Below, in pieces: positions 1-3,226 of a DNA stretch of 3,534 nucleotides. Source of the stretch: a virus. Lineage: Duplodnaviria > Heunggongvirae > Uroviricota > Caudoviricetes. A program made the translations under genes and the position numbers. The stretch lies in IMG/VR virus record IMGVR_UViG_2648501165_000012; one strand, given 5' to 3'. Position 1 is the first letter of the stretch, and every line of letters starts with the position of its first letter. The notes below the pieces were generated by a model. That model ran no database searches. It saw only the letters and a list, made by a program, of their open reading frames with translations, and was not told the DNA's origin.

Positions 1-342
1 ATGATGAAAAAAAGTATTCTGGCGTTTCTGTTACTCACCAGTTCTGCAGCGGCGCTGGCTGCACCGCAGGTGATTACCGTCAGTCGTTTTGAAGTGGGTA
101 AAGACAAATGGGCGTTTAATCGCGAAGAGGTGATGCTGACTTGCCGACCGGGTAATGCTTTGTATGTTATTAATCCGAGTACCCTCGTGCAGTATCCTTT
201 AAACGATATCGCACAAAAGGAAGTTGCCAGTGGGAAGACCAATGCCCAACCCATTTCGGTGATTCAGATTGATGATCCTAACAATCCCGGCGAAAAAATG
301 AGTCTGGCACCGTTTATAGAACGAGCTGAAAAACTCTGTTAA
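1..342 (+). CDS. yebY: Small exported protein with N-terminal signal peptide, 113 aa, two Cys (C48, C113); YebY-like (DUF2511-type) host gene
   Basis: Complete ORF from ATG at 1 to TAA at 340-342. The N-terminus [23 protein letters not shown] is a typical Sec signal peptide with an AxA cleavage motif. It is followed by an intrinsic terminator. The yebY assignment rests on the 113-aa length, my recollection of the protein, and the adjacent SdsR/RyeB sRNA, which in E. coli lies in the pphA-yebY intergenic region. Not verified by search. Confidence 0.7.
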
Positions 343-371
343 TTACCTAAAATAGCCTTTTGATTTCCAAT

Positions 372-413
372 AAAAAAACCGCCTCAGTTCTTTCACCAGA
401 ACGGGCGGTTTTT
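372..413. terminator. Bidirectional rho-independent terminator: A-tract, GC-rich stem with nested inner stem, T-tract
   Basis: A7 run at 372-378; outer stem ACCGCC (378-383) pairs with GGCGGT (404-409); inner stem GTTCT (387-391) pairs with AGAAC (398-402); T-run at 409-413. The A-run on one side and T-run on the other allow termination on both strands: yebY on + and an antisense RyeA-like transcript on -. Confidence 0.6.
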
Positions 414-484
414 AACATTTCAGCTGATGACCACCACGCTTTTTATTGACCATTTTGCACGCAAACTGGAAAACCTGGCGTCGT

Positions 485-499
485 CATCTATTCTTAAAG
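485..499 (+). promoter_or_regulatory. Putative sigma-S-type promoter -10 element for SdsR (TCTATTCTTAA)
   Basis: CTATTCT at 488-494 with C at the -13 position and TAA immediately downstream resembles the extended sigma-S -10 consensus (CTAYRCTTAA), positioned 6-7 nt upstream of the predicted sRNA 5' end near 500. No good -35 at correct spacing, which is typical for sigma-S promoters. Confidence 0.45.
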
Positions 500-603
500 G
501 GCAAGGCAACTAAGCCTGCATTAATGCCAACTTTTAGCGCACGGCTCTCTCCCAAGAGCCATTTCCCTGGACCGAATACAGGAATCGTATTCGGTCTCTT
601 TTT
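500..603 (+). ncRNA. sdsR: SdsR (RyeB) small regulatory RNA
   Basis: About 104 nt with no coding potential. Contains a perfect palindrome GCATTAATGC (519-528), a hairpin GGCTCT/AGAGCC (544-549 with 555-560), and a terminal intrinsic terminator: stem CCGAATAC (572-579) with GTATTCGG (587-594), then TCTCTTTTT (595-603). The sequence matches my recollection of E. coli SdsR/RyeB. 5' end approximate. Confidence 0.75.
581..603. other. Probable prophage attachment-site core (attL-type junction) overlapping the last ~23 bp of sdsR
   Basis: The host-like sRNA sequence ends at 603 and an integrase gene ends at 735, with arm-like elements between. As I recall, the last ~23 bp of ryeB were reported as an integration hot spot for prophages in Salmonella. 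The exact crossover point cannot be determined without an empty-site or attR sequence. Confidence 0.5.
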
Positions 604-615
604 AATTGTATTTAA

Positions 616-628
616 AATCAATTAGTTG
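616..628. promoter_or_regulatory. IHF-consensus site (AATCAAttagTTG), candidate H' site of the P' arm
   Basis: Exact match to WATCAANNNNTTR, located between the putative core (ending at 603) and the tandem repeats (from 637), as the H' site sits in the lambda attP P' arm. Confidence 0.4.
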
Positions 629-636
629 CAAGCGTC

Positions 637-668
637 TCCCCGAAATTCCCCGAAATTTACTCGAATTT
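637..668. repeat. Tandem direct repeats TCCCCGAAAT x2 plus a degenerate third copy (CGAATTT); candidate arm-type Int binding sites
   Basis: TCCCCGAAAT at 637-646 and 647-656 are identical and adjacent; CGAATTT at 662-668 is a partial third copy. The position, 70-130 bp from the int stop and 35-65 bp from the putative core, mirrors the lambda P'1-P'3 arm sites. Confidence 0.45.
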
Positions 669-734
669 CTGTATTCCGGTCTTTTTTGGTTATATCACAA
701 CCAATATACATTTAACAATCCATTTACGTTAAAA

Positions 735-1811
735 TCAGAGCAGTAAGTACGTTTTTTCTCGCTCATCAAGATACATTTTTGTTGTCTTCTCCGATGTGTG
801 ACCAAGTAGGCGCTGGGCAAATTCTTCTCCACATGTTTCTTTGTACAATCGTCCAGCCAGACTTCTGATCTCGTGAAAAGTTGGTGGGTTTTCACTGAAC
901 TGGATACCTGTTAATTTTCTGGCTGCGACAAATTTTTTTGTCAGGCCATCCGGGTGAATGCTGCCGTCAGGGCTGTTTTTTCTAATCCCGGCACTGATTA
1001 GATAATCTCCCCGGCTTACTAGGCGGCATCGTTCAACTACTGTACCAAGCCGTAGACCAGCGACAGGAAGGCTGAGTGACAGAGGGATAGCAATCATCAT
1101 TCCTGTCTTAATTTGCCTGATGTGGAGACGGTCATCATAAATATCACTGAACCGCATATTCGTTATGTCTTCGCGACGTTGTCCTGTTACAAGGGCTAAA
1201 TCCATAGCTAATGGGAACCATGCCGGAAGTTGATCTGCTGCCTCCCTGATGCAGTTGTATGTCTTTAGTTTCAGTCGTTCTCTTGTAACTACTATTTTCG
1301 GTGCTCTTGTTGGCGTGACTGGATTTTGAGATATACGTCCTTCAACAATGGCCTCGCGAAACATATCAGACAACACAGAACGCATTGATCCTGCCATTGT
1401 GTTTTTCCCTCCTTCAATCCACAAATCAAGAAACTCGGCAATATGGCGAGTGGTTATTTCTGTCAGTAAAATCTCTCCCAATTTTTCTTTTATTGTCTCC
1501 AGTTGATTTACCCGGATTTTATAAGTATTTCTGGACACTTTTCTCCTTATAAGAATCGTTTTGTAACGTTCAATCCAGTCTGCCATAGTAAATGAGTCGA
1601 ACCCTTTAAGCTTTTCAATTAAGGCAGCAGGAGAGTAGTTTTTGTATATATAATGATTTGCTTCAATTGCCTGCGCTACTGCATCTCTTCTTGAAATTTT
1701 ACCTAGTGTAAATTCTTCTTTCGTCAGAGGGTTGCGCCAGTAATATGCTTTGTCCCTCCTTCGATATGTTAAGTTTTTAGGCAAATTGGGATCGTATTTT
1801 TTCCGCTGCAT
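735..1811 (-). CDS. int: Lambda-family tyrosine integrase (phage integrase), 358 aa
   Basis: The ORF aligns along its whole length with lambda Int as I recall it, including the N-terminal arm-binding region ([27 protein letters not shown] versus lambda PPNLYIRNNGYYCYRDPRTGKEFGLG). Catalytic residues are all present: R in [10 protein letters not shown] in [10 protein letters not shown]-x-x-R in [11 protein letters not shown], and H and Y in [17 protein letters not shown]. Divergent from lambda Int, perhaps about half identical by eye. GGAG lies about 11 nt upstream of the ATG. Confidence 0.95.
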
Positions 1812-2058
1812 GTTTTAACTTCTCCAGTAACGGACTGTCTCTCCCTTGTCGCCCATTAGGCTGATGGTGTGTTATATCGGTATCAACCTTATTTGGGTTG
1901 ATATAGAAAGCCTCCGGAACCACCCTGTAACTCCTCCCGTGTAGTTCAGGTGCAGGATAAATGTTTCCATTCCTTGCCCATCGTCTCAGCGTTGATATTG
2001 ATGGTGGATTATCCGGATATCTGAGTTTCCCCCACGTTTTGAGTGTCACAAGATTCAT
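1777..2058 (-). CDS. xis: Excisionase (Xis), lambda-like; 3' end overlaps the int start by 35 bp
   Basis: MNLVTLKTWGKL...ISTLRRWARNGNIYPAPELHGRSYRV resembles lambda Xis (MYLTLQEW...SLETVRRWVRECRIFPPPVKDGREYLF). The start is chosen at the second ATG (2058), which has AGAGG 7 nt upstream; the 95-aa ORF-track version starts at 2064 with only a 1-nt spacer. An xis-int overlap is also seen in lambda. Confidence 0.8.
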   Translation of the reverse strand: MNLVTLKTWGKLRYPDNPPSISTLRRWARNGNIYPAPELHGRSYRVVPEAFYINPNKVDTDITHHQPNGRQGRDSPLLEKLKHAAEKIRSQFA

Positions 2059-2081
2059 TGCCATACCTCTTACGATATGAC

Positions 2082-2108
2082 CGCCAGTAAATATACAGAA
2101 TACTGGCG
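2082..2108. other. Perfect 8-bp inverted repeat (CGCCAGTA ... TACTGGCG) with 11-nt loop, immediately upstream of the xis ribosome-binding site
   Basis: Arms at 2082-2089 and 2101-2108. No flanking T-run in the direction of transcription, so it is not a canonical intrinsic terminator. Possible RNA stem-loop or protein-binding palindrome. Confidence 0.3.
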
Positions 2109-2205
2109 GACGTGATTGATTTTTAATAATCAGCTATGAAGTTCTAATTTGGATATAATGCAACTCACGAGGACAGAAGTTTCTCGCAATTAAAATTTAT
2201 CAGTT

Positions 2206-2215
2206 NNNNNNNNNN
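2206..2215. other. Assembly gap (run of 10 N)
   Basis: Ten consecutive n characters. By convention this marks a gap of unknown true length, so continuity and reading frame across it cannot be trusted. Confidence 0.95.
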
Positions 2216-2326
2216 CCCCGAGAGCATTTTTTCGCATTCCGATTTGGTTAACTTTGTTTTTGAGTACCTTGTCCAGTTAGTAGGAGTGCCACCTTCCTTT
2301 TCAATAGTGGCGGTAATTTTATACAT
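2216..2326 (-). CDS. Small hypothetical phage protein, 3'-truncated by the assembly gap (37 codons visible: [37 protein letters not shown]...); occupies the position of lambda orf63
   Basis: ATG at 2326-2324 is preceded by GGAGGT with a 4-nt spacer and overlaps the Lar stop (cATGtaTAA). The 77-aa ORF in the track starts further upstream inside lar and runs through the N-gap, so only this part is supportable. Confidence 0.45.
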
Positions 2327-2549
2327 GAACACCTCCATTATTATTTCCAGTGGTTCGTTTATTCCATCGTTCGAGTGCTTCTTTTTCACTTCCACCATAG
2401 CCGGTTCGGGATTCGCATCCGTTACACTTCGCGCGGTAATATCCTGAAATGGCTTTCACCGTTACTGATGGACAACCACAAAAAGGGCATGGTTTGACTT
2501 TTGTGTATCGCACTGGTTTTTCTCCTGTGAGCTTTGTGGCTGCGCTCAT
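2319..2549 (-). CDS. Lar-family restriction alleviation protein (Zn-ribbon-like CPFCGC...CNGC), 76 aa; positional equivalent of lambda orf60a
   Basis: Cys cluster [31 protein letters not shown] is the signature of the Lar family (Rac RalR / lambda orf60a-type). Start placed at the ATG at 2549, which forms an ATGA overlap with the exo stop and has GGGGAG 8 nt upstream. The ORF-track start at 2555 has too short a spacer. Confidence 0.8.
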
Positions 2550-3226
2550 TTCCATTGCTCCCCAAATACAAAACCAATTTCAGCCAGTGCCTCGTCCATT
2601 TTTTCGATGAACTCCGGCACCATCTCGTCAAAACTCGCCATGTACTTTTCATCCCGCTCAACCACGACATAATGCAGGCCTTCACGCTTCATACGCGGGT
2701 CATAGTTGGCAAAGTACCAGGCATCTTTTCGCGTCACCCACATGTTGTACTGCACCTGGGCCATGTAAGCCGACTTTATGGCCTCGAAACCACCGAGCCG
2801 GAACTTCATGAAATCCCGGGAGGTAAACGGGCATTTCAGCTCAAGGCCATTGCCGTCACTGCATAAACCATCGGGAGAGCAGGCGGTGCGCATACTTTCG
2901 TCGCGATAGATGATCGGGGATTCAGTAACATCCACGCCGGAAGTAAACTCAAACAGGGCTCTGGCGTCGTTCTCGTACTGTTTTCCCCAGGCCAGCGCCT
3001 TAGCGTTAACTTCAGGAGCCACACCGGTGCAAACCTCGGCAAGCAAGGTGTGGAAGTAGGACATTTTCATGTCTGGCCACTTTTTTCCTGAGCGGGGTTT
3101 TGCTATCACGTTGTGAACGTCTGAAGCTGTGATGACACCTAGCCGTAATTTGTGCCACGCATCATCTCCCTGTTCGACAGTTATCACGTCGATCCCGGTA
3201 CGCTGCAGGATAATGTCTGGTGTCAT
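2546..3226 (-). CDS. exo: Lambda exonuclease (Red-alpha, 5'-3' dsDNA exonuclease), 226 aa
   Basis: The 226-aa translation ([14 protein letters not shown]...[11 protein letters not shown]) matches lambda Exo as I recall it, with only a few substitutions. Its start ATG overlaps the bet stop as ATGA (3223-3226), as in lambda. Confidence 0.97.

Follow-up and report, generated by a model that had tools for sequence, protein, structure and literature searches.

Among the systems described, the closest to the locus examined here is the RalR/RalA type I toxin-antitoxin pair of the E. coli Rac prophage. In the Rac copy, RalR is a non-specific DNase toxin, and its antitoxin RalA is a 179-nt Hfq-dependent small RNA whose gene is contained entirely in ydaC, on the opposite strand (Guo et al., 2014; PMC4041452). 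A stretch of 16 nt in RalA, nucleotides 63 to 78, pairs with the coding region of ralR and blocks its translation; the RalA start site lies 62 nt upstream of this 16-nt repeat, which was tested by mutations at T63 and G64 (PMC4041452). The experiments on Hfq-dependent neutralization of RalR were carried out on the K-12 Rac copy only, and the same paper states that ydaC encodes no protein (PMC4041452, 2014).

The window analyzed here, a stretch of 3,534 nt from the IMG/VR virus record IMGVR_UViG_2648501165_000012, carries a locus of the same kind. Its left part holds yebY (1-342, plus strand) and the tyrosine integrase gene int (735-1811, minus strand), both assigned from Pfam and from the RefSeq annotation of closed genomes, followed by the excisionase gene xis (1777-2064, minus strand; PF07825 Exc, 52.1 bits), whose RefSeq start maps to 2058. 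On the right stands the lambda-type exonuclease gene exo (2546-3226, minus strand; PF09588 YqaJ, 108.3 bits), and beyond it the 3' part of bet, assigned in the same manner as yebY and int. With exo, the right-hand boundary of the interval, ending in its stop codon at 2546 and xis starting at 2064 (ORF list) or 2058 (RefSeq mapping), the space between the two genes measures 481-487 bp as drawn, in agreement with an earlier note on this DNA that had set about 480 bp here against more than 2 kb in phage lambda (2269 bp by our count). The interval is filled by known parts, namely ralR, a 62-aa ORF resembling DUF1187/RcbA (YdaC) and the 179-nt RalA small RNA gene, and would constitute a compact Rac-type module of ralR and DUF1187/rcbA with the RalA gene on the opposite strand. 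The complete layout yebY-int-xis-DUF1187-ralR-exo-bet is found in ten closed genomes, and the identical gene arrangement is already present in RefSeq.

The toxin gene ralR (lar) occupies 2319-2513 on the minus strand, begins with a GTG and encodes 64 aa (RefSeq WP_001307771.1). Its product matches PF14354 (Lar_restr_allev) with 53.4 bits against a cut-off of 28.6, and RefSeq names the identical protein a type I toxin-antitoxin system endodeoxyribonuclease toxin RalR; judged by these assignments, the ralR of the window encodes the predicted DNase toxin of the RalR/RalA type I pair. The RalA target within it, the 16-nt sequence AAGTGAAAAAGAAGCA, lies at 2376-2391 on the minus strand and is the pairing partner of RalA nt 63-78. 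The neighboring DUF1187/RcbA (YdaC)-like ORF spans 2165-2326 on the minus strand and is 62 aa long when intact (RefSeq WP_024165285.1). The RefSeq start in closed relatives maps to window position 2326, an ATG that opens the product MYKITAT..., and this is where the earlier note had placed the start of the small minus-strand gene that it saw interrupted by a gap. Codons 38-49 and the first base of codon 50 fall in that gap; once they are restored, the 62-aa product matches PF06688 with 127.8 bits against a cut-off of 20.7, covering profile positions 1-61 of 61. The 77-aa ORF of the mechanical list (2165-2398), in which the Ns are translated as XXXX, owes its 24 additional N-terminal residues to an upstream in-frame ATG inside ralR, and the distrust already voiced about it was well placed, the closed-genome product being 62 aa.

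The start of the DUF1187 ORF overlaps the ralR stop by 8 nt (2319-2326; ATGTATAA). In two diverged homologs, L136 and L139 (2501-2513), the overlap with the upstream gene amounts to 13 nt, the gene overlapped being in L136 an ORF of 64 aa, the size of RalR, and in L139 one for a Dam-type methyltransferase; that an overlap is kept suggests translational coupling. A tblastn search of the phage collection with the 62-aa protein returned only six relatives, all with at least 93% identity, and a literature search under the DUF1187 name gave no match. We also note that GenBank record PP818812.1, labeled 'Actinobacillus phage vB_Apl-pPE4', carries this E. coli xis-DUF1187-ralR stretch at positions 89-740, with 97.4% identity in nucleotides and no difference in the DUF1187 protein; the host assignment of this record looks doubtful.

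The window contains a single run of Ns, ten in number, at 2206-2215, just as the earlier note had reported. The run belongs to neither strand and is a placeholder for a stretch that the assembly did not resolve, which measures 37 nt in closed genomes (TTACTTTCTGCTCTCTGGAAACGCCTGCTTCTTTTTT). Window positions 1-2205 and 2216-2516 recur with 100% identity in the closed genome of E. coli 13E0780, and exactly 37 nt, TTACTTTCTGCTCTCTGGAAACGCCTGCTTCTTTTTT, separate the two flanks there; direct comparison with E. coli R1, likewise closed and with identical flanks, gave the same 37 nt at the gap. A megablast search with a 661-nt query covering the gap region found both flanks together in about 1900 (1921) of 5426 complete E. 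coli genomes, with five genomes among the matches listed reaching 99.8-100% identity. Matches in two pieces were examined for the best 30 entries and for 55 more taken at even ranking steps over the 1921 genomes. In 84 of these 85 the span in the genome record equaled the query span plus 27, and the sole exception among those listed was 13E0780, with plus 26, where a 1-nt indel at window position 2517, outside the gap, makes up the difference; each of the 85 two-piece matches listed, all from closed E. coli genomes, hence implies 37 nt in the gap. Viral contigs point the same way. The exact 45-nt left flank occurs in 16 IMG/VR contigs, every one of them uninterrupted and free of Ns, and past the flank they continue with the same sequence, save for a single-base difference in one of the 16. 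The 45-nt flank had no counterpart in the genome_contigs collection, nor had the pattern of flank, ten Ns and flank in metagenome_contigs.

On the strength of this collinearity with closed relatives, the N-run is very probably a scaffolding or assembly placeholder for about 37 nt, with no gene hidden in it, and the content of the gap in this strain is most probably the 37-nt sequence of those relatives. The net shortfall of the drawn sequence would be 27 nt, in frame, and since 10 and 37 both leave a remainder of 1 on division by 3, ORF callers stay in frame across the gap and draw a continuous ORF. If the ten Ns stand for about 37 nt, the true length of the exo-xis interval is about 510 bp, which leaves no space for a hidden gene. 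The earlier note had offered the choice between a much shorter accessory region and missing sequence, and had thought that unknown accessory genes might lie concealed. The shorter region stands; a sizeable loss does not agree with the 37 nt of closed relatives, and the idea of concealed genes finds no support, every listed match with both flanks implying 37 nt only. Because the N-run is a property of the record rather than a statistical pattern, a test against chance does not apply to it.

Other readings of the N-run deserve to be weighed against this one. A real insertion, whether an IS element or accessory cargo, might have broken the assembly and left genes out of the record; IS elements often cause contig breaks, and other lambdoid lineages do carry extra genes nearby, such as a 138-aa ORF between DUF1187 and xis or the contents of the 2269 bp in lambda. 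Those genes, however, lie outside the DUF1187 ORF and not within it, and on either side of an insertion the flanks would be expected to abut or to be duplicated, whereas here the flanks match the closed relatives right up to the Ns, show no foreign end sequence and are separated by the absence of 37 reference bases. Every closed genome and viral contig listed has only 37 nt at this place, and we regard an insertion as extremely improbable. A second possibility is that the length of the gap is nearly literal, so that the strain would carry an in-frame deletion of about 27 nt and with it either a RalR without functional antitoxin or a module in decay. The arithmetic permits it, a loss of 27 nt preserving the frame, and a natural 12-nt in-frame deletion does occur in this stretch in 2 of 108 IMG/VR copies. 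Ns denote unread bases, though, and not a measured length; the flanks, some 2.5 kb of them, match without a difference those of a closed genome with 37 nt at this place, and no allele with a 27-nt deletion is found among 41 unique alleles, all of which makes such a deletion very unlikely.

It could also be supposed that the Ns were introduced by a database or a data provider, as a mask or an edit, over sequence that was known, and the description of one of the collections used does mention a few stretches that were masked to N. Masking normally preserves length, while here 37 nt have become 10 N, and the hidden sequence is unremarkable and stands unmasked in the 16 IMG/VR contigs and in the closed genomes. 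We would give this reading hardly any credence, and the biological conclusion would be the same under it as under that of an assembly placeholder.

The reason for an assembly break at this very place may be sought in the allelic variation of the module. In an alignment of 41 unique alleles, drawn from 120 IMG/VR loci, the hidden block varied only in rare alleles (a few SNPs, and the 12-nt in-frame deletion mentioned above). The nearest sites at which variation is common were found 2 nt away from it on the left and 1 nt away on the right, and the hidden stretch almost coincides with the segment that these two sites enclose. In one IMG genome with two paralogous prophage copies, an exact 38-nt block is common to both copies here, with mismatches on either side, and a second copy of the module is present in 12 of 30 closed genomes (the best 30 matches). 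In a short-read assembly graph, the gap would then appear as one common node between two allele-specific branches, and it is this node that a scaffolder would span with placeholder Ns. Gaps are commonly written with ten Ns, as a minimum or as a placeholder length. In the closest closed genome among the matches listed, 13E0780, the module is present only once, so that this cause is not assured, and we put the odds that a paralogous module copy provoked the break at about even. An IS insertion as the cause of the break was rejected on account of the reference bases that are missing at the flanks.

What the gap does to the record is best seen on the plus strand, where the RalA gene, which the first reading of this DNA had missed, runs from 2169 to 2320 (RF02694). 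The gene lies wholly inside the DUF1187 ORF and antisense to it, and adjoins ralR on the opposite strand. RalA nt 1 corresponds to window position 2169, and the hidden 37 nt are nt 38-74 of a small RNA that measures 179 nt when intact. The Rfam model RF02694, whose gathering score is 170 bits, matches the window with 111.2 bits (E = 1e-24) and the closed genome L001 (2770-2948), which is identical to the window around the gap, with 216.7 bits over model positions 1-179. The window score falls short of 170 because 37 nt have been replaced by 10 N.

The loss falls on the toxin-recognition core of RalA. Twelve of the 16 seed nucleotides (RalA nt 63-74), including all 11 contiguous Watson-Crick pairs, are in the gap, and only the last four, CCCC at 2216-2219 on the plus strand (RalA nt 75-78), are left in the record. 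A direct complement search between RalA and ralR, register by register, found that the longest perfect complement in any register is the 11 nt from RalA nt 63; relatives with identical flanks have this 11-nt perfect complement, and 13 of the 16 seed positions pair in them. The bases mutated in the Rac work, T63 and G64, both map into the gap, at exactly the expected bases. In the Rfam consensus structure, the long-range helix and the seed hairpin also lose their 5' strands to the gap (nt 42-56 and nt 63-70, respectively), and the loop of that hairpin loses one half (nt 71-74). The functional core of the antitoxin would in this way be lost from the record, and with the core taken out the antitoxin becomes invisible to RNA annotation that relies on thresholds. 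In practice a known antitoxin is under-reported and a small DUF1187 ORF is corrupted and mistranslated, and the record can be misread as a RalR toxin without its antitoxin, or as a phage with missing cargo, neither of which is real.

Upstream of RalA, a TATAAT at 2154-2159 stands 9 nt before the mapped 5' end of the RNA (2169), with no recognizable -35 element; the Rac-type allele has TACAAT at this place. This TATAAT is likely the -10 element of the RalA promoter. A scan of the exo-xis interval of a closed genome for promoters and terminators called none: the TATAAT before RalA has no acceptable -35 for the scan, and the RalA terminator hairpin fails its T-run rule. The 100 nt that separate the xis start from the DUF1187 stop contain a perfect 9-bp inverted repeat at 2081-2109 (neither strand; CCGCCAGTA, 11 nt, TACTGGCGG), which was read directly from the sequence. 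It was not called as a terminator by the scan and no T-run follows it; it may serve the early-left transcript as a site of RNA processing or of protein binding, or else insulate the RalA promoter.

The stretch that the gap conceals is also coding sequence on the other strand. The ORF is intact in 107 of 108 readable copies, with 62 aa in 64 copies, 69 aa in 41 and 65 aa in two, the last through an in-frame deletion, and the one remaining copy is frameshifted. E. coli-type alleles differ by 24 synonymous and 14 non-synonymous polymorphisms, distributed 8/7/23 over the three codon positions, where a random expectation would be 21% synonymous (binomial p = 2e-8). A large protein search found homologs at 59-65% amino-acid identity, one of them annotated as Klebsiella oxytoca, which occupy the same prophage position and have Lar/RalR, a Dam-type methyltransferase or another ORF upstream. 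Between the E. coli gene and these homologs the synonymous sites are saturated (pS 0.57-0.95) and pN is 0.19-0.28, dN/dS is about 0.2 where computable, and differences are about twice as frequent at third codon positions as at first or second ones. On the homolog loci the RalA model scores only 24-36 bits, with many broken pairs.

These patterns of substitution show that the DUF1187 ORF is under purifying selection at the protein level. It is probably a genuine protein gene, and the gap stretch may well be doubly functional, with one strand specifying the RalA seed and the opposite one a conserved K-x-EAGVSR motif of the DUF1187 product. As the ORF persists without an upstream ralR and where the RalA model barely matches, the comparison suggests that the protein has a function independent of the toxin-antitoxin pair. 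The result is compatible with RalA as an antitoxin and contradicts only the stronger statement that no protein is made. While it is a side result of the present analysis, it bears on a question in the Rac literature, whether a protein or RalA is responsible for the rcbA phenotype.

The module resides in a lambdoid prophage with lambda-type Red genes that is integrated at SdsR/RyeA. Full-length Rfam matches place the SdsR/RyeB small RNA at 504-603 on the plus strand and SraC/RyeA at 607-463 on the minus strand. The attachment junction (about 604/605) falls exactly at the 3' end of SdsR and the 5' end of RyeA, because homology to prophage-free E. coli genomes ends at window position 604. The same integrase is found at the SdsR/RyeA site in 228 of 5426 closed genomes; the locus is a known insertion hot spot in enterobacteria. 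Apart from the gap, the 2516 nt on the left are identical to 13E0780, and all differences between the two lie to the right of ralR, namely the 1-nt indel at 2517, in the spacer that follows between ralR and exo, and nine SNPs (2612-2897) within exo itself, a distribution suggestive of a recombination boundary that separates the ralR module from the Red genes. In the closed relatives L001 and L002 (3174-5688), lambda-type exo, bet and gam are followed directly by a gene for a RecE-family exonuclease, and in these genomes two recombination systems lie side by side. The diverged prophages L137-L140 carry their additional 138-aa ORF, which has no Pfam match, between DUF1187 and xis (about 2692-3116); cargo does vary near here in other lineages, yet outside the position of the gap.

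Set beside known cases, the gap itself resembles ordinary scaffold gaps of draft assemblies, in which a short N-run of fixed length likewise joins contig ends that are collinear with closed relatives and the sequence concerned occurs in more than one prophage copy per genome; no feature was found that distinguishes it from these, and the gap is an ordinary assembly artifact in a known system. The xis-exo region of lambda has the corresponding place in the early-left operon, with the recombination genes on one side and xis/int on the other. Its 2269 bp (29079-31347) hold six ORFs (lambdap35, ea8.5, ea22, orf61, orf63 and orf60a), while the interval in the window has two ORFs and one small RNA in about 510 bp, and none of the six is common to both.

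The likeness to the Rac RalR/RalA locus is far more detailed. Gene order and orientation are the same, with ydaC/rcbA overlapping the ralR stop and RalA lying antisense inside ydaC, and the relatives of the window share with Rac an identical 16-nt target, AAGTGAAAAAGAAGCA, and the 11-nt perfect RalA complement. The restored product is 94% identical to RcbA, for which NCBI gives the name double-strand break reduction protein RcbA. The differences are ones of setting and detail. The module sits in another prophage, one that is integrated beside yebY, at SdsR/RyeA, with a lambda-type exo-bet-gam set upstream where Rac has recT; the 3' end of the seed reads CCCC here and ACCT in Rac, with 13 against 15 of the 16 positions paired; and the DUF1187 ORF is 62 aa long, in contrast to 69 aa in K-12. 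The locus is a member of the published, and hence already known, RalR/RalA family with DUF1187/RcbA.
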